The notes beneath the pieces were generated by a model. It made no database searches. It was not told the DNA's origin and worked only from the letters and a program-made list of their open reading frames with translations. This document shows, in pieces, positions 6,549 through 15,808 of a DNA stretch of 64,000 nucleotides. The position numbers and the translations under genes were made by a program. Origin of the DNA: Desulfatiglandales bacterium (GTDB taxonomy: Bacteria > Desulfobacterota > DSM-4660 > Desulfatiglandales > Desulfatiglandaceae); contig OY762721.1 of the NCBI GenBank assembly GCA_963666345.1, forward strand, positions 3,104,001-3,168,000, given 5' to 3'. Numbering within the stretch: position 1 is the stretch's first letter; each line of letters begins with the position of its first letter.

Positions 6549-6749
6549 ATGGGCAGAACAAACGTGGTGATTGATGATAATCTGGTCAATGAATGTCAAA
6601 AATTGACCGGAATTCGTACACGGCGCGCTCTTATAGACTACGCGCTACATGAGGTGCGACGCCGTGGTCGTCAGAAACGATTGCTTGAACTGAAGGGCAC
6701 TATCAAATGGGAGGGTGACCTTACCGAGTGGCGGGAGGCTCGTGATTAA
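6549..6749 (+). CDS. vapB: VapB antitoxin
   Basis: RTNVVIDDNL...LLELKGTIKWEGDL motif; GGAGG RBS. Confidence 0.85.
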   Translation: MGRTNVVIDDNLVNECQKLTGIRTRRALIDYALHEVRRRGRQKRLLELKGTIKWEGDLTEWREARD

Positions 6750-7138
6750 TGGTGCTTGTCGATACATCAGTTTGGATCGACTTATTTGCAGGCCGTAACG
6801 AGTCACATGTGATGTCACTTCAGGAACTGATCGAGAGTGAAGAGGATTTGTCACTCTGTGGAGTTATCCTTGCGGAAGTTCTCCTAGGTATCCGTTCTGA
6901 TGCAGATTTTACCAAAACAAAGGAGTATCTTGGCGACCTTATTTTCCTGCCCATGCGGCAAGCATCATTTGTAAAAGCAGCTGAGCTCTATAGGTCCCTT
7001 CGAAAGAAAGGGGTTTCAATTCGGAAACCAGTTGATTGTATGATTGCTTCTGTTGCAATTGAGTACAATATCCAACTGCTTCACAATGACCGCGATTTCA
7101 ACCATATTGCCAGGCACTCAAAGCTTAGAATATTTTGA
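6749..7138 (+). CDS. vapC: VapC PIN-domain toxin
   Basis: VLVDTSVWID, AEVLLG, VDCMIA, LLHNDRDF. Confidence 0.92.
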   Translation: MVLVDTSVWIDLFAGRNESHVMSLQELIESEEDLSLCGVILAEVLLGIRSDADFTKTKEYLGDLIFLPMRQASFVKAAELYRSLRKKGVSIRKPVDCMIASVAIEYNIQLLHNDRDFNHIARHSKLRIF

Positions 7139-7292: not shown

Positions 7293-10200
7293 ATGAAGAC
7301 AAGTAGTATTGATTCAACAAAAATCGACGGCAATCGAAGCATCAGGCAAGGTGGAACATTTATCCGGGCAATTACATGCTTAATGCTCCCGGTAATCATC
7401 TCTATTCTGTTGATGGGCCTTCCTTCGGTCGGGCATGGAACCGAGGATCCCCTGACACCTGAGGAAAGAGCCTGGCTGAAGCAGCATGACGAGAAGATTA
7501 TTGTAAATAATGAAGCAGGCTGGCCGCCGATTATAGATAGGGATAACGATGGCAATTCGTTTGGAATTGTTATGGATTATCAAAGATTGATTGAAAAGAA
7601 GCTTAATTTTAAGTTCAAAATGGACAAGTTGGACAGCTGGAAAAACTTTATGGAGAGGTTTCGTAAAGGAGAAATTGACGTAAATAATAATCTTCAAAAA
7701 TCTCCTAAGCGAACTGAATATGCACTTTTTACAAAGCCCTATATAGAGATTCCAAATGCCATCATCGTCAGAAAAGAAAATAAAAGCGTTCTCACCTTAG
7801 AAAAGATGCGTGAAATGAAAATCGCGGTTACCAATGACTTTGCCATTCATGGCTACATCAAAAACAATTATGATTATTTACAACTCATACCGCTTGATGA
7901 TGATCTCAGTTGTTTGCTTGAAACCTCCACCAAAAACGTAGATGCAGCGGTCGTGAATCTGGCTGTTGCATCATTTATTATAGAAAAGATGGGGATAGCC
8001 AACCTTCGCGTCGCAGGATATGCCGAGTATACAAATGCGCTCTGTTTTGCGTCAAGAAAGGATTGGCCGATCCTGAACCGGATACTGGATAAGGGACTTA
8101 ACCTCATCAGCCAGGCAGAAAGGAAAGCCATTTACAGAAAGTGGATCTCTTTGAGATATATACCTTTTTACAAAACCCGTAATTTCTGGATCGTTTCCTG
8201 TAGCGTAGCCGCGGCAGTTATAGCAATTATCATTATGATACTTGTTTGGAATCGAAGTCTGAAAAGGCAAATTGAGTTACGAACAGAGAAACTTGAAACA
8301 ATCAATGTTCAATTGAAAAATGAGATAGATGATCGCAAGAAGGCGGAAGAGTCACTAAAGGAGAGTAAAGATAATTATCGCATTTTGTTCGATAATGCCC
8401 CCGACTTAATTATCGTAATCAATACTGAAGGAATTTTTCTTGATTTAAATAAAAAGTTTGAGCAAGAAAGCGGTTACAGCCGAGAGGAGATGATAGGGAA
8501 AAGTGTCTTCACAAGCGGGATATTAACAGAATCATCTGTTAATTTATCAATACCTTACTTTGAAAAGCTTCTTGCGGGGGGGAAACGGGCCTTACTTGAA
8601 ATTGAAGGTGTGACAAAAGGTGGCAGTAAAGTTCCTTATGAGCTAATGGCGGTTCCTATTAAGAAAGATGGTAAGATAGTGGCAGCTCAGGCGACACTGA
8701 GGAATATGACCGATCGCAAGCAGGCGGAGGAGGAAAAAGATAAGCTGCAGGAGCAGCTGTCCAGTGCTGTGGAAATGGCCCGTCTGGGCCATTGGGAGTA
8801 CGACGTCGCCAAGGACCTCTTCACGTTCAATGACCATTTCTACAAAATATTTCGCACCACAGCCAGGCAAGTCGGAGGGTATACGATGTCATCGGCTGAA
8901 TACGCCCGTCGATTTGTCCATCCTGACGATATGACTGTTGTCGAAGAAGAAAATCGAAAAGCTATTGAAGCAACCGATCCCAACTTTAGCCGACAACTGG
9001 AACACCGAATGGTTTATGCCGATGGGACGGTCGGCCATATCACCGTTCGGTTTTTCATCATCAAGGACGCCCACGGTAGGACGGTCAAGACCTATGGCGT
9101 GAATCAAGATATTACCGAGCGCAGGAGGACGGAGGAGGCGTTACGGAAGAGCGAGGAGAAATACCGGAATATTCTTGAAAACATTGAAGATGGCTATTAT
9201 GAAGTAGACATTGCTGGAAACTTTACTTTTTTTAACAAATCAATGTGCAAGATCCTTGGATATTCAGCCGATGAGTTAATGGGCAAGAATAATCGTGAGT
9301 ACACGGATGGAGAAAATGCAAAAAAGATTTTTCAGGCCTTTCATGACGTGTATCAAACAGGAATAGCCACCAAGGCACTTGATTGGAAACTTATCAGAAA
9401 AGATGGTTCCGAGTGTTTTGTCGAAACGGTGGTGTCTCTTGTAACGGATTTAAATAACAACAAAGTGGGATTTAGGGGAATCGCCAGAGATGTCAGTGAA
9501 CGCAAGTCTATCGAAGCACAGCTTCACCAAGCACGAAAAATGGAGTCAATCGGCACCCTGACAGGCGGCATCGCCCATGATTTTAATAACATTATGGGTA
9601 TTATTGTTGGAAACACGGAACTGGCTTTAGATGATGTCCCGGAGTGGAACCCGGTTCATTCCAACCTTGAAGAGATCAAAACAGCCAGCCTAAGGGCAAC
9701 AAATATAGTAAGGCAACTTCTCAGCTTCAGCCGCAAGACCGACCAGAAACTGCAACCCATGGAAATTGCCTTAGTCATTAAAGATGCACTCAGATTTTTG
9801 CGATCAACGATTCCAACCTCCATAGACATTCAGCAGGATATTCGAGCCACGGATGAAGCTATTCTTGCAGAGCCAACCCAGATCAACCAGATCATGATGA
9901 ACCTGTGCATCAACGCTTCCCATGCCATGGAAAAAACCGGCGGAAATATTGCAGTCAATGTGGAAAAGGTGATTCTGGACGATAGTTCGGCCAAAGACTA
10001 TCCAGATTTGAGAAGCGGCAAACATGTCAAGGTAACGGTAAGCGATACAGGCCCGGGAATAGACCCTGCAATCATCGACCGAATCTTTGACCCCTATTTT
10101 ACCACCAAGGAAGTGGGAAAAGGCTCAGGCATGGGCCTTGCTATGGTGCAAGGCATTGTCAAGAACCTTAGCGGAGCGATTTTGGTTGACAGTAGGCCCG

Positions 10201-10658
10201 GCCAAGGCACTACTTTTACGATGCTTTTTCCACTGATTGAAGGAAAAACAGCGGTTGAAACAGAAACAATACAGGTGCTTCCCAGGGGAAGTGAAACCAT
10301 ACTATTCGTGGATGATGAACTGTCGATTGTAAAGATGGTGCGGAAAATGCTCGAGCGCCTGGGATACAAAGTCGAAACCTCCATGACGCCGCAAGATGCT
10401 TTGGAACGGTTTCGCCTGAATTCCGATCAGTTTGATTTAGTCATTACTGATATGACTATGCCGCAGATGACCGGTGTTAAGCTGTCTGAAAAGATAATGG
10501 AAATCCGAGAAGATATCCCAATCATCATCTGCACGGGGCATAGTGCCCTTGTCGATGAAGAAAAGGCGAAAGAATTAGGTTTAGCCGCCTATATCATGAA
10601 ACCAATAAACATGTCAGTAATCGCGCAGACCATTCGGAAGGTGTTTGACAAAAAATAA
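7293..10658 (+). CDS. Hybrid sensor histidine kinase: periplasmic binding domain, TM, three PAS, HisKA, HATPase, receiver
   Basis: LTPEERAWL..WPP; GGIAHDFNN H-box; FTTKEVGKGSGMGL; ILFVDDE, ITDMTMP; exact start uncertain. Confidence 0.93.
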   Translation: MKTSSIDSTKIDGNRSIRQGGTFIRAITCLMLPVIISILLMGLPSVGHGTEDPLTPEERAWLKQHDEKIIVNNEAGWPPIIDRDNDGNSFGIVMDYQRLIEKKLNFKFKMDKLDSWKNFMERFRKGEIDVNNNLQKSPKRTEYALFTKPYIEIPNAIIVRKENKSVLTLEKMREMKIAVTNDFAIHGYIKNNYDYLQLIPLDDDLSCLLETSTKNVDAAVVNLAVASFIIEKMGIANLRVAGYAEYTNALCFASRKDWPILNRILDKGLNLISQAERKAIYRKWISLRYIPFYKTRNFWIVSCSVAAAVIAIIIMILVWNRSLKRQIELRTEKLETINVQLKNEIDDRKKAEESLKESKDNYRILFDNAPDLIIVINTEGIFLDLNKKFEQESGYSREEMIGKSVFTSGILTESSVNLSIPYFEKLLAGGKRALLEIEGVTKGGSKVPYELMAVPIKKDGKIVAAQATLRNMTDRKQAEEEKDKLQEQLSSAVEMARLGHWEYDVAKDLFTFNDHFYKIFRTTARQVGGYTMSSAEYARRFVHPDDMTVVEEENRKAIEATDPNFSRQLEHRMVYADGTVGHITVRFFIIKDAHGRTVKTYGVNQDITERRRTEEALRKSEEKYRNILENIEDGYYEVDIAGNFTFFNKSMCKILGYSADELMGKNNREYTDGENAKKIFQAFHDVYQTGIATKALDWKLIRKDGSECFVETVVSLVTDLNNNKVGFRGIARDVSERKSIEAQLHQARKMESIGTLTGGIAHDFNNIMGIIVGNTELALDDVPEWNPVHSNLEEIKTASLRATNIVRQLLSFSRKTDQKLQPMEIALVIKDALRFLRSTIPTSIDIQQDIRATDEAILAEPTQINQIMMNLCINASHAMEKTGGNIAVNVEKVILDDSSAKDYPDLRSGKHVKVTVSDTGPGIDPAIIDRIFDPYFTTKEVGKGSGMGLAMVQGIVKNLSGAILVDSRPGQGTTFTMLFPLIEGKTAVETETIQVLPRGSETILFVDDELSIVKMVRKMLERLGYKVETSMTPQDALERFRLNSDQFDLVITDMTMPQMTGVKLSEKIMEIREDIPIIICTGHSALVDEEKAKELGLAAYIMKPINMSVIAQTIRKVFDKK

Positions 10659-11230: not shown

Positions 11231-11428
11231 ATGCTTACAAAAATTCAGAAATGGGGAAATATCCAAGGTCTTCGTCTTCCCAAAAATTTGCTCAATGACG
11301 TACAGCTTGGGGTCGGTGATGATGTGGATATCAGTGTAAAAGACGGTGTAATTATTGTCACACCAGCCAAAATGGTCCGTGGCTTCTTATGTCCCAAACC
11401 AAGGGGATATTATCGCATTCACCTTTGA
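11231..11428 (+). pseudogene. mazE: MazE/AbrB-type antitoxin lacking its C-terminal half
   Basis: KIQKWGNIQGLRLPK AbrB fold; after PAKMVRG the frame runs directly into mazF sequence. Confidence 0.75.
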
Positions 11429-11717
11429 TCCCCAATCCGGTCACGAACAAAAAGGGCGACGTCCTGCTTTAGTTGTCAGTAAGGAGCTGTTCAATCGAAG
11501 TACCGGTTTAGCTATTGTGTGTCCTATTACAAATACACAGTGTGGTTTTCCATTTCATGTCCCTATACCAAAGGACAGCAGGCTAACAGGTTTCATTATG
11601 GTTGAGCAAATTAAATCAGTTGATTTTAGAGCCCGGCGTGCCAAACGAATTGAGCAGCACAGCAATGATGAATTGCTTTCTGAAGTCCTGTCTATACTGG
11701 ATGCCTGCATTTATTAG
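11379..11717 (+). CDS. mazF: MazF/PemK endoribonuclease toxin
   Basis: GDII..FDPQSGHEQKGRRPALVVS, VCPIT, EQIKSVDF; GTG start with no clear RBS. Confidence 0.88.
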   Translation: MASYVPNQGDIIAFTFDPQSGHEQKGRRPALVVSKELFNRSTGLAIVCPITNTQCGFPFHVPIPKDSRLTGFIMVEQIKSVDFRARRAKRIEQHSNDELLSEVLSILDACIY

Positions 11718-12271: not shown

Positions 12272-13660
12272 TTATTTTGCCCTGTTGGAACTGCCCACCT
12301 GTTCAGGCGGCCTGATGTCGAGCTTTTTCATCTTGCGGAACAGCGTTGTCTTGTGGATTTTCAGCTCTTTGGAGGTGGCGAGTCGATTCCATTTATTCTT
12401 TGTAAGAACTGATATGATGAACTGCTTTTCCACTTCAGCCAGGCTGGAAGCGGTGCCCATATTTTCTGTCCGGGGTCGCAGCGATTCGGGTAAGTGCCTG
12501 ACCCGGATTAAATTGCCGGGGCACAGGACGCAGCCATGTTCAATGATGTTTTCCAGCTCCCTGACGTTTCCGGGGTAATCATGGCTCATCAGTATGGTTA
12601 AGGCATCAGGGGAAATACCGTTGATATCTTTGTCGTGAAGGGCTGAAAATCGCCCGATGAAGTGATTTACGAGTAACGGCACATCTTCCATCCGTTCACG
12701 AAGCGGTGGAATTTCCAGCTTGATTACATTAATCCTGTAATAGAGGTCCTGCCGAAATGTCTTTTTGGCAACCATCAATTCCAAGTCACGGTTTGTTGCA
12801 GTGACAATTCGAACATCGGCCTTCACGGAACGAACACCACCCAGGGGTTCATATGTTTTTTCCTGAAGTACGCGGAGGAGCTTTATCTGAAGGAGCGACG
12901 GGAGGTCCCCGACCTCGTCAAGGAACAGCGTGCCCCCTTCGGCCAGGGCGAAACGTCCAGGCTTGGCCTTGACGGCACCGGTGAAGGCGCCAGCCTCGTA
13001 CCCGAAAAGCTCCGACTCTATAAGCGTTTCCGGAAAACCGCCGCAGTTTATGGCGACAAACCGTCTTTTACTACGTCTACTGAGGTTGTGAAGGGCACGG
13101 GCGAAAACCTCCTTGCCCGTTCCACTTTCACCCGTTATCAAGACGTTGCTCTCATTCAGGGCTATGGTAGGCAGGATGTCCAGGATCTGTTTGATTTTGT
13201 TGTTTTTGCTGATAATATCTTCAAAGGTATATGTCTTTTCTATTTCTTTTCGCAGCTCTTCAACGTGTCTCAGATCCCGGAAACTCTCCACCCCACCGAT
13301 CAGTCTGCCTTGTCTGTCTCTGAAAAGCGCCGTGGAAACGCTTATCGGGATCTGCGCCCCCTGTCTATTGGTGAGGTACACCGTAAGGTTTACGACCGGT
13401 CTGCCGGTTTCTATCGTATACTGTATGGCACAGGCATCTCTGCAGATGTTTGATTTAAAAACCTCATAGCAGCGGCGCCCCAGCGCCTCCGAGCGCGGTA
13501 TGCCTGTGATTTTCTCTGCAGCGCGGTTAAAGCAGGTAATACGCCACTCACGATCCACAGTAAAAACTCCCTCGCTTATACTGTGAATTACCGCCTCAAA
13601 ACGCTCAGGCGACGGCTCGCCCAGAAAAGCCGCTGAATTGAGTCTGTCCTTTTCCGTCAT
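12272..13660 (-). CDS. PAS-domain sigma-54 enhancer-binding protein with Fis-type HTH
   Basis: GESGTGKE, GAFTGA, LFLDEVG, YPGNVRELEN; N-terminal PAS. Confidence 0.95.
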   Translation of the reverse strand: MTEKDRLNSAAFLGEPSPERFEAVIHSISEGVFTVDREWRITCFNRAAEKITGIPRSEALGRRCYEVFKSNICRDACAIQYTIETGRPVVNLTVYLTNRQGAQIPISVSTALFRDRQGRLIGGVESFRDLRHVEELRKEIEKTYTFEDIISKNNKIKQILDILPTIALNESNVLITGESGTGKEVFARALHNLSRRSKRRFVAINCGGFPETLIESELFGYEAGAFTGAVKAKPGRFALAEGGTLFLDEVGDLPSLLQIKLLRVLQEKTYEPLGGVRSVKADVRIVTATNRDLELMVAKKTFRQDLYYRINVIKLEIPPLRERMEDVPLLVNHFIGRFSALHDKDINGISPDALTILMSHDYPGNVRELENIIEHGCVLCPGNLIRVRHLPESLRPRTENMGTASSLAEVEKQFIISVLTKNKWNRLATSKELKIHKTTLFRKMKKLDIRPPEQVGSSNRAK

Positions 13661-13765: not shown

Positions 13766-15640
13766 CTAAGGAGTGGCATTATATGAGTGTCCCCTGGTCA
13801 ATGTCTCCATCCGCTTTTTTGAATATCCCAGGATTTCCCAGGCCTCTTTGTAGACCGGCCTTCCGTCCCTGTTAAAGGGATCAATAAGGATTTTTCGATT
13901 AAAAAAGGGAGAAGGCTTTAAGTGGCAGTCTTTACACCCTTTGGATCCGAGGGCAAATTTGCCGCTGACCACATTATGGCTGAGATCAAAGGGTTCGCAG
14001 CATTTGAACCCCCCGTCGCGCGTAGGCATTAGAGCCTTGTTCAATTGATTGTGATCGAGATAATATATCATGCCGCCCTTTACCAGAACAGGCGAGTGGT
14101 ACACGATCCGGCACCCGAATCTGTCCTTGCCCTCTGATATGGCCTTGAGGTATGTCGTTATTTCTTCCGCAGTGTTTACCTGTTTTGATCCGTTTAGCGC
14201 CTCCAAAAGGGCATAGTTGGTGATGGAAAAATTGTTCTTGGGTCCGGCTCCGGTGAAGTCCCTGATTCTCCACAGGACAATGGGGATAACACGATGAGAA
14301 GACCTGTCCCAATCTCCCCACCATACGACCTGCATAGGGTCAACCGGCTTGATCTTTCCTTTGTATTTTACAAACGCGGGGCACCAGCTGCTTTTCGGAA
14401 ACCTTCGGCAGGATTGAGCGGGATTCAGGGGATCATTAGATAAAAAATCCGAGGTCAGGTATCGGATACTGTGTCCTGTTGTCGCGTTGTCCATTACTGA
14501 AGTGGCTGCGTTGATTTTGTACGGGATATGACATGTTTCACAAGATATTTTATCGATATGCAGATCCGGGAATTTATGATCAGGTCTCGGCGCACGGCTG
14601 TCCGCTCCCTTTAAATGACAATCCGCACAGCCCTTCATGCTCACATCAATATCATCCCTTACGGACCCGACCAGTATGTCACCCTTGGCAATTTCATGAT
14701 TTTCACCGCCGCTGTGACAGTATGTGCATGATAGATTTTTTGCCTTGTGGACGTCTGTTGCGGCATCCCAGCTTCTGCCTCTTTTCATGCCGTCAGGCAT
14801 GACATGACAATTCCAGCAGTTTTCGTCAGGGACCTCTCCGGTTATGGATGCGGCAAGATCCGCCGGGTCGGCGACCCCCGTCTTTGTGTAATCAAGGCCG
14901 AATGAAAGGGCTTTAGCAGGCAGTGAAGGAAGGGCCGGTTTAGACGCCTTGAGATCGCGATACCATCCGGCCCCCACCATGGGTGCCTCGTAAAAAAATC
15001 CTCCTCTAAGGGCGAGCGTCCGTGCTTTCCAGTCATACCCTTTGAGGTGGCAGCTCAGGCAATCAGCCTCAATCACGCCGCTTTTTGTCCAATTTGATTG
15101 ATAATAGTCACCGTCAAGATAATTATCGCCTCTGGGTATGATATTATTGGCGGGGTCTCTTGCGAATTCATCGTAGCGATTTCCCTTGCGGTCATACTCG
15201 CCTGGCCCACCTCCCGGATGGCAGACGCCGCAGGTCTTTGCCCAAAAATACGATGACTTGTCAATGTCACAGCGCCTCATGTTTACCTTCCTTGCCAACT
15301 GGCTGGAATCCGAAGAGGGGGGTCACCACTTGCCGTACATGCCGCGTGAAATCAGCCAGGGGTTTTTGGAGTCCATGTCGTCCCTGACGATTATATTGCC
15401 CGCAGCATCGGTTCGACCATGTTGAAAGTGATAGGCGTTGGTTATGGCGTCATAATCATGACATTCCCCGCATGTGTTTTTGGGGCTGTAAGGGATGTTG
15501 CTCTCAAGCGGTATTTCATTTCCATCGTAATCCATCAGTATGACTTCCGGATGGGGTGCCTTCTCAGAAGCCTCGGAAACGGGAAACAAAAAGGGCATCA
15601 ATAACGTCCACAAAATAAAAAGAAAGCCAGATTTTCGCAT
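13766..15640 (-). CDS. Exported octaheme cytochrome c with in-frame TGA (probable selenocysteine 106), 624 aa
   Basis: ORFs 15323-15640 and 13766-15298 are in the same frame, joined by GMYGKW-TGA-PPSSDSSQLARK; signal peptide; eight CxxCH motifs. Confidence 0.8.
15288..15325 (-). promoter_or_regulatory. Putative bacterial SECIS hairpin
   Basis: After UGA: UUCC-A-GCC-AGUU-GGC-AA-GGAA; apical loop starts 22 nt downstream with G in position 2. Confidence 0.5.
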
Positions 15641-15808
15641 GGGGAGACTCCTTTCACAGTTGGTTTAAACCGGTTTTCCTTTTATCGTACAGGTCCGGTG
15701 CCGTGAAATAAAAAAAGAAACCGCTATGGATCGGAAGATATATAAGGCTTCAATCCCGCAAATGATAAAGCCGCCCTTTCTCCGGTTCGGTGTTCGATCC
15801 TTCGGAAT

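Follow-up and report, generated by a model that had tools for sequence, protein, structure and literature searches.

Does an in-frame UGA on the minus strand of this stretch terminate a short open reading frame (ORF), or does it encode selenocysteine (Sec) within a much longer gene? The question arises at positions 13766-15640 of the 64,000-nt window (the whole stretch of contig OY762721.1 of a Desulfatiglandales bacterium analysed here, to which all positions refer). In the ORF listing and its translation, a 105-aa ORF (15323-15640, stop included) and a 510-aa ORF (13766-15298) belong to the same frame, and the sole divider between them is a TGA at 15323-15325, codon 106, in the junction ...ATG TAC GGC AAG TGG TGA CCC CCC TCT... 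(GMYGKW*PPS). The read-through product has 624 residues, exactly one internal stop, and eight CxxCH motifs. An earlier reading of this DNA (hereafter the initial annotation) had joined the two ORFs at this junction into one 624-aa product, had listed eight CxxCH motifs, and had noted that the downstream part has no signal peptide of its own. The frame and the junction are present in the sequence, all eight motifs were located in the read-through protein, and signal-peptide-like features (MRK, a hydrophobic stretch, and SEA) were seen by eye at the far N-terminus only. AGGAG is located 7 nt upstream of the first ATG. These results indicate that a single gene at 13766-15640 encodes a soluble c-type cytochrome with eight hemes that is exported to the periplasm, and we consider it almost certain that its UGA codon 106 is selenocysteine. 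The principal features are as follows.

13766-15640 (stop codon included), minus strand: complete octaheme c-type cytochrome gene of 624 codons, predicted to encode a selenoprotein; a single frame on TGA read-through, with full-length relatives that also carry one TGA
15323-15325, minus strand: in-frame TGA, predicted selenocysteine codon 106
15566-15640, minus strand: probable Sec-pathway signal peptide, approximately residues 1-25 (MRK...VSEA, followed by SE), judged by eye; helix at residues 5-17 in the structure model, with low confidence there

Decoding of UGA codon 106

A word-indexed protein search with the cytochrome yielded 1305 matches. The 32 closest database proteins (59-90% identity) were all 400-507 aa long and lacked the N-terminal fifth, and full-length matches appeared only from about 46% identity downward. 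Since the closest proteins lack the N-terminal part, gene callers are presumed to have stopped at a conserved UGA. When 209 genomes from the same class were searched in six frames, matches were found in 18, and 13 places had exactly one in-frame TGA. TGA occupied the same codon in orthologues (64-80% identity in this search, 60-80% overall; GKW*PPS) and in paralogues (38-52% in this search, 35-50% overall; GKR*PPA, GKH*PPS, and GGRW*SPGP), and these same-class matches also included three paralogues with Cys (GGNWCSPAP) and one orthologue with TCA, encoding Ser. A scan of one genome per species added 80 further loci. Among 98 loci aligned across the site, the codon was TGA in 39, TGC/TGT in 33, ATG in 7, TCA in 5, and CTG in 5, with nine others spread over eight codons; because this count includes duplicates between two fetches, identical sequences were removed, leaving 30 Sec-type, 33 Cys-type, and 25 other loci. 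The initial annotation had pointed to the GKW-x-P column of homologues as the place to look, and a conserved TGA (30 distinct loci) and Cys (33) are indeed found there. Protein conservation extended across both flanks of the TGA, which alternated with Cys codons and not with those for Trp or Arg. A profile search of 1.84 billion representatives returned 1418 matches at E <= 0.001, 304 of them at E <= 1e-30. Of the 150 top-ranking matches, 79 extend over the site, with Cys in 20, Leu in 17, Ser in 9, and other residues less often, and another 43 start at most 60 alignment columns after it, as would fit Sec forms cut by gene callers, though some may be fragments.

The genome has selB (393.8 bits), selA (608.9 bits), selD (372 bits), and tRNA-Sec (74.6 bits), all above curated cut-offs. 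The Sec machinery, whose presence the initial annotation had left to be checked, is thus complete. selD (C1:620342-621268, outside the window, locus L010) has an in-frame TGA of its own (GSG*ASK), and therefore the selenophosphate synthetase appears to be a selenoprotein here as well.

Bacterial selenocysteine insertion sequence (bSECIS) elements are stem-loops that follow closely on the 3' side of the UGA and have G(U) in an apical loop approximately 16-37 nt downstream. A hairpin with these properties follows codon 106.

15288-15308, minus strand: bSECIS-like hairpin with a stem of 4 bp, an internal loop, and 3 bp, and an AGUU apical loop at 15300-15297

Its sequence is UUCC.A.GCC[AGUU]GGC.AA.GGAA (15308-15288), and the loop begins 22 nt past the UGA, just as the initial annotation had described. 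We compared this region among the deduplicated loci, dropping locus L082, which has no QLA motif. The AGUU loop was present in 29 of 30 Sec-type genes, compared with 2 of 33 Cys-type and 8 of 25 other genes. Within the loop, TTG was used as the Leu codon in 29/30, 5/33, and 13/25, respectively, and a stem of at least 6 bp surrounded the loop in 20/30, 1/33, and 7/25. The mean minimum free energy (MFE) over the 57 nt after the codon was -14.0 kcal/mol in Sec-type, -8.6 in Cys-type, and -8.7 in other genes, in a comparison that does not control for G+C. In distant Sec members, the AGUU loop sits on differently built, compensatory stems, for example UUUUCGCC[AGUU]GGCGAAGA and CCAGUC[AGUU]GGCUGG. 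In this comparison of sequences, the hairpin thus goes specifically with genes that have the TGA. At five loci (L029:1816-1818, L066, L069, L074, and L087), the Sec column has Ser, in each case encoded by TCA, one step from TGA; three of them (L029, L069, and L074) have retained the AGUU hairpin and may therefore be recent Sec-to-Ser conversions.

A maximum-likelihood tree was built from 87 distinct full-length translations (fragments below 450 aa and duplicates dropped; midpoint root for drawing only). Clade A, which includes this gene, has 17 rows (SH-like approximate likelihood ratio test, SH-aLRT, 100), 16 with Sec and one with Ser. Clade B has two basal Sec rows and 26 further rows, of which three have Sec and 23 have S/M/L/T/Q/F. 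In clade C, 31 rows with Cys are monophyletic, six rows have Sec, and a small group contains Cys, Sec, and Tyr. A further Sec row, L092, is on a long branch. Eight state changes at the site suffice on this tree, compared with a shuffled mean of 40.6. All deep branches have Sec or Cys, with the non-chalcogen forms nested within, and since the clade B rows without a chalcogen are nested among Sec forms, they look like derived losses. The initial annotation had held that variable residues at this position would speak against Sec. Taken literally, such variability does exist in this one subclade, in rows that look derived.

Several observations weigh against our reading and should be set beside it. 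The hairpin is not unusually stable (76-nt MFE -15.7 kcal/mol, z +1.46, with 193 of 200 shuffles at least as stable), so that its significance lies in its conservation across genomes and not in its own stability. It also overlaps the codons of a conserved SQLA(R/K)K motif, and part of its conservation is therefore protein-driven. The MFE difference given above was obtained without control for G+C. Because 23 of 26 clade B rows have no chalcogen at the site, the scaffold can evidently work without one. Finally, no RNA contig bridges the UGA among the metatranscriptome contigs, which cover 15141-15313 and 15409-15512 on either side of it; DNA carry-over is possible in these contigs, and they were not counted as evidence of expression.

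Near-cognate read-through of the UGA as Trp, Cys, or Arg, or the synthesis of two products, a 105-aa monoheme protein and a 504-aa protein starting at ATG121, would be in line with the unremarkable stability of the hairpin, with the 504-aa proteins that gene callers give in relatives, and with a Shine-Dalgarno-like AAGGAAGG located 5 nt upstream of ATG121. However, the codons of the invariant R/K117-K118 lie in this same AAGGAAGG, which also makes up the 3' arm of the hairpin. Attachment of heme to CxxCH motifs requires periplasmic maturation, and the downstream product would have no signal peptide despite its seven CxxCH motifs. As TGA swaps with Cys codons and not with Trp or Arg codons, the loop is specific to TGA genes, and the Sec machinery is complete, we regard both forms of this explanation as very unlikely. 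A contig from run X8, which belongs to a different study, spans 15297-15558 with 0 differences, TGA included (runs X6 and X11 do not reach the codon). Sequencing error is therefore ruled out, and the TGG or TGC that the initial annotation had allowed for in reads is not the case in this independent contig. A recent pseudogene or an assembly error, suggested by the stop codon itself and by nothing more, is very unlikely to the point of being negligible, given the same TGA in 30 distinct sequences of many genomes with both flanks conserved and an independent contig identical across the codon.

Codon 106 thus shows, at the level of sequence, the features by which bacterial selenoproteins are usually recognised computationally. 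The AGUU hairpin, the conservation of the UGA, the Cys that other relatives have at this column, and a complete Sec machinery together support Sec, and with it the core of the initial annotation, namely a single exported octaheme cytochrome with Sec at the UGA, in a poorly described type of periplasmic redox protein.

Fold, heme 2, and the proposed role of Sec106

Pfam and NCBIfam gave only generic multiheme matches for the cytochrome, all below their cut-offs, and sequence searches against solved structures were uninformative (NrfB at E 0.0074 with the single sequence; a 'Cytochrome c' chain at E 0.022 with the profile). An AlphaFold2 (AF2) model built on a 149-sequence alignment reached a predicted local distance difference test (pLDDT) score of 90.7 and a predicted template modelling (pTM) score of 0.89; a model on a shallower 46-sequence alignment had a pLDDT of 46 and was not used for searches. 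With the former model, Foldseek returned 1sp3 as the sole match below E 0.001 (E 6.9e-8; next E 1.8). VIA-align, which is independent of Foldseek, also returned 1sp3 (Z 12.9, root-mean-square deviation 4.1 A, 328/436 residues; next match Z 2.4), aligning residues 26-618 of the model with residues 1-438 of the 1sp3 chain. 1SP3 is the structure of octaheme tetrathionate reductase (OTR; Shewanella oneidensis SO4144, TIGR04315), and it is thus the only structural match, over the whole length. hhalign against an OTR-family alignment, built from 19 genes of related genomes, gave 99% probability and E 2.7e-18 over hemes 3-7. On the other hand, the score against NCBIfam TIGR04315 was 35.7 bits, below the cut-off of 375. 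From these results, the protein is very likely an octaheme cytochrome of the OTR superfamily. The eight heme motifs (from the translation) and a lysine discussed below are located as follows, all on the minus strand.

15458-15472, minus strand: heme motif 1, CGECH (residues 57-61)
15218-15232, minus strand: heme motif 2, CGVCH (137-141), proposed catalytic heme by analogy with OTR
15047-15061, minus strand: heme motif 3, CLSCH (194-198), aligned to OTR heme 3
14804-14818, minus strand: heme motif 4, CWNCH (275-279), aligned to OTR heme 4
14714-14728, minus strand: heme motif 5, CTYCH (305-309), aligned to OTR heme 5
14615-14629, minus strand: heme motif 6, CADCH (338-342), aligned to OTR heme 6
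14528-14542, minus strand: heme motif 7, CETCH (367-371), aligned to OTR heme 7
13922-13936, minus strand: heme motif 8, CKDCH (569-573)
15287-15289, minus strand: Lys118, candidate equivalent of the heme 2 lysine ligand of OTR

In clades A and B, seven non-motif His are conserved for eight hemes (H30 is mostly Cys in clade C). Six invariant ones, H71, H298, H315, H355, H361, and H555, correspond to H39, H184, H203, H241, H250, and H425 of OTR; a possible seventh in both families is the N-terminal His or the His of the heme 2 motif. With seven His for eight hemes, one heme would therefore lack a distal His in both families. In OTR, heme 2 has Lys56 as a ligand, and this heme and a conserved Cys make up the catalytic site (PMC3769277; 10.1101/2023.04.20.537704); the penta-coordinate heme is placed in the N-terminal module (PMC9250108).

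Residue 106 falls between motifs 1 and 2, outside any CxxCH motif, in agreement with the initial annotation, and this is the segment in which OTR has its Lys ligand and catalytic Cys. K118 and N120 are invariant in 87/87 sequences, while K104 is replaced by N/T/R in clade C. K118 precedes heme motif 2 by 19 residues, the same spacing as K55 of OTR. However, the N-terminal profile alignments to OTR are weak and in conflict, and this counts against the placement of the site: the 46-sequence profile pairs K104 of GMYGK with K55 in IGK of OTR (85%/78%), whereas the 87-sequence profile pairs K118 with K55 and W105 with W42 (4-11%). On account of its invariance and its spacing, we favour K118 as the counterpart of the lysine ligand of OTR. 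A further difficulty is that Sec106 does not align with Cys64 of OTR, whose column falls on D127 or on S114-115 in the two alignments; Sec106 precedes the lysine in both, and the Cys of OTR follows it. Since Sec106 comes before the lysine in either alignment and residues of about 74-114 look like an insertion relative to OTR, it is probably not homologous in position to Cys64. It has the look of a chalcogen that is placed separately, on a loop specific to this family and adjacent to the same catalytic region.

By analogy with OTR, hemes 1 and 3-8 would be bis-His electron-transfer hemes, and heme 2 (C137xxCH), with K118 as its lysine ligand, would be the odd, substrate-facing one. On the family-specific loop just before K118, the chalcogen of Sec106 could serve as a redox-active nucleophile toward a sulfur, selenium, or metalloid substrate by heme 2, and the adduct would be reduced by electrons arriving through the chain of seven bis-His hemes from a periplasmic or membrane donor. 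The chemistry would be the reductive cleavage of a chalcogen or metalloid bond, following the same logic as Cys64 of OTR and Sec325 of MccSep (a multiheme selenoprotein described below). We give about an even chance to Sec106 being the nucleophile in catalysis at heme 2. Taken together, the proposal of an octaheme OTR-like fold with Sec at 106 and catalysis beside heme 2 is likely to hold.

Alternatively, Sec106 might be an axial heme ligand, in a His/selenolate or Lys/selenolate heme, that tunes the potential or gates the site instead of acting as a free nucleophile. The count of just seven conserved non-motif His for eight hemes leaves room for such a ligand, the site is Cys in 33 distinct loci, and His/Cys-ligated hemes are catalytic in MccSep, TsdA, and SoxAX (PMC13510729). 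In contrast, the odd heme of OTR is ligated by lysine and is open on its distal side, and the invariant Lys118 is available for the same role here. In addition, clade B has Leu, Phe, Gln, Thr, and Ser at the site, which are unable to ligate iron, with the rest of the site conserved. We consider axial ligation unlikely.

Cysteines found in clade A alone are C510 (16/17), C547-C548 (17/17), and C124 (12/17). C510 is encoded at about 14111-14113 and C547-C548 at about 13997-14002; the latter pair is in a 4-residue insertion (FKCCEP) beside a low-confidence loop of the model. More speculatively, clade A might be a new heme-selenium enzyme class in which Sec106, C510, C547-C548, and often C124 form a chalcogen relay or a small metal site by a Lys-ligated heme 2. 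The family would then have begun as a Cys/Sec-dependent periplasmic sulfur, selenium, or arsenic reductase, with a chemistry undescribed for any multiheme cytochrome and a chalcogen that evolved independently of Cys64 of OTR. We regard this extended proposal as tentative and, on balance, doubtful.

Genomic context and a possible link to arsenic

In the window, the neighbours of the cytochrome gene are a DUF1638 gene and a putative regulator.

12272-13660, minus strand: sigma-54-dependent PAS-domain activator (Pfam), directly downstream on the same strand; possible regulator, with a similar gene next to orthologues L051 and L053

We scanned neighbouring genes in clade A (36/61 ORFs, 7 loci), clade B (31/88 ORFs, 16 loci), and clade C (67/143 same-strand ORFs, 23 loci). 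Clade A orthologues were accompanied by sigma-54 activators (2/7 loci) and by Usp, GAF, DUF1638, and DAC genes, and clade B genes stand alone, next to an esterase or EF-Tu. No conserved redox partner or substrate-related neighbour was found in the scanned clade A and B ORFs, which also tells against the proposed function. A sigma-54-like -24/-12 element, GGCAC-N5-CTGT with GT instead of GC at -12, is present at 15687-15703 on the minus strand and starts at -62 from the start codon. When we looked upstream of 11 loci, plausible -24/-12 elements were found in three; the orthologue loci L047 and L053 have a better element than the window, TGGCA[CT]-N5-ATGC. This is only suggestive of a sigma-54-type promoter for the cytochrome gene, whose expression may depend on the adjacent activator. 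Elsewhere in the window, a 1121-aa SBP-PAS hybrid histidine kinase (7293-10658) lies between a PIN-domain ORF (6749-7138, plus strand) and a MazF/PemK-type toxin ORF (11355-11717, plus strand), which probably belong to toxin-antitoxin modules.

In clade C, arsenic-type genes adjoin in 14/23 loci: acr3 over the cut-off at 5 loci, arsC-type at 2, ArsD with ArsR at 1, ArsF-family at 3, ArsE-family at 1, an SaoE/ArsP-like permease at 6, and ArsG-like at 2. At L100:5273-5575 (plus strand), an acr3 cluster includes a clade C gene of the octaheme/cytochrome b type, directly followed by a DF-family (seleno)protein gene (NF049942, below cut-off). This proximity of arsenic genes to Cys/Sec relatives, together with the reduction of selenite by MccSep (PMC13510729), would suit a site that binds or transforms a metalloid (arsenic or selenium species) and not sulfur, in a family of periplasmic heme-dependent arsenic/selenium redox enzymes. 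However, neither the window gene nor the scanned clade A and B relatives have ars neighbours, and clade C proteins are just about 33-35% identical to this one and are usually fused to a cytochrome b, which this protein lacks. The restriction to metalloids is therefore improbable to us for the window protein, and we retain the broader reading of a nucleophilic Sec106 whose substrate may contain sulfur, selenium, or a metalloid.

Comparison with known multiheme systems

The protein is of a known kind, Sec-containing multiheme cytochromes (ExtKL/MccSep and Sec-OTR), and its family has no Pfam or NCBIfam model. MccSep/ExtKL of Geobacter sulfurreducens (GSU2937-2936) is a pentaheme selenoprotein that was shown in 2026 to be a polysulfide reductase (PMC13510729), so that multiheme selenoenzymes have only just gained a function. 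Like MccSep, the protein is a periplasmic multiheme cytochrome c split by annotation at an in-frame UGA, and in both, Sec is followed by Pro (G-U-P in MccSep, W-U-P here). MccSep shows that Sec next to a heme can serve as the catalytic residue of such a reductase; its Sec is beside a non-bis-His heme 2, and the model is one of selenolate attack on a chalcogen substrate followed by heme-driven reduction (PMC13510729). In contrast to the eight hemes and Sec at residue 106 here, MccSep has five hemes and a C-terminal immunoglobulin-like domain, from which Sec325 comes. NF040886 (MccSep/ExtKL) did not match the protein at E <= 0.1, nor was it found in the genome. We therefore rejected an identity with MccSep/ExtKL on the absence of this match, the eight hemes, and the position of Sec at residue 106 and not in a C-terminal D-G-U-P loop. 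MccSep structures were absent from the matches of the sequence and fold searches; they may not be in the searched sets, so this has no bearing on similarity.

Another comparison concerns the CbcL type, in which a multiheme c domain is fused to a diheme cytochrome b resembling FdnI. Distant relatives such as P0126 and P0131 are built in this manner, with a C-terminal FdnI-like cytochrome b (TIGR01583, 157 and 136.8 bits; cut-off 115.85), and the octaheme module can therefore be quinol-fed. Unlike them, the window protein ends after the octaheme module and has no membrane domain in Pfam or NCBIfam. CbcL-type c/b fusions are listed in PMC11492766.

A 2026 review of selenoproteins names ExtKL, the GSU2204 family (CXXCH-containing), and OTR as cytochrome-related families, with Sec-OTR as a GenBank-annotated selenoprotein; this octaheme family is not among the cytochrome-related entries named in the part of the review available (PMC13188914). 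No description of the family as a selenoprotein was found in the full-text literature, a search that does not cover subscription journals. Because automated annotation divides or shortens these genes, it introduces systematic errors for them into the number of cytochromes, the size of the selenoproteome, and the metabolic reconstruction of sulfate reducers and sediment bacteria. The Sec, Cys, and no-chalcogen variants on one scaffold provide a good system for examining what selenium contributes to heme-based sulfur and metalloid chemistry.

The closest known system is OTR itself. The initial annotation had called multiheme selenoproteins rare, but in the true OTR family of this bacterial class, 20 of the 58 listed places have one TGA, and in all seven of those fetched it is located exactly at the catalytic Cys (NNF-U). 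A search of same-class genomes for the OTR family found no true OTR in the genome of the window. Strong hairpins follow the TGA at the true OTR loci L126, L131, L132, and L136-L139, and the OTRs of L132 and L136-L138 have an extra Cys, two positions upstream of heme motif 2 (NWC[RS]CTSCH), that might act as a resolving cysteine. The window protein resembles OTR in its eight CxxCH motifs in the same order, in the same pattern of conserved distal His, and in having both a conserved Lys and a Cys/Sec in the stretch from heme motif 1 to heme motif 2, with Sec forms in both families. It differs in its length (624 vs about 450 residues, with long insertions here), in an identity of only about 21% in the structural alignment, and in its clade-specific Cys510 and Cys547-Cys548, which are not in OTR. 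The position of the chalcogen also differs: Sec106 precedes the invariant Lys by 12 residues and is on a loop that appears to be missing from OTR, whereas the Cys/Sec of OTR is 9 residues after its Lys. As judged from the model, the protein shares the fold and one-to-one heme order of OTR but belongs to a separate, unnamed family. It would thus represent a second branch of the OTR superfamily, large and with no solved structure, that also uses selenocysteine, at another place in the active-site region than the true OTRs do.

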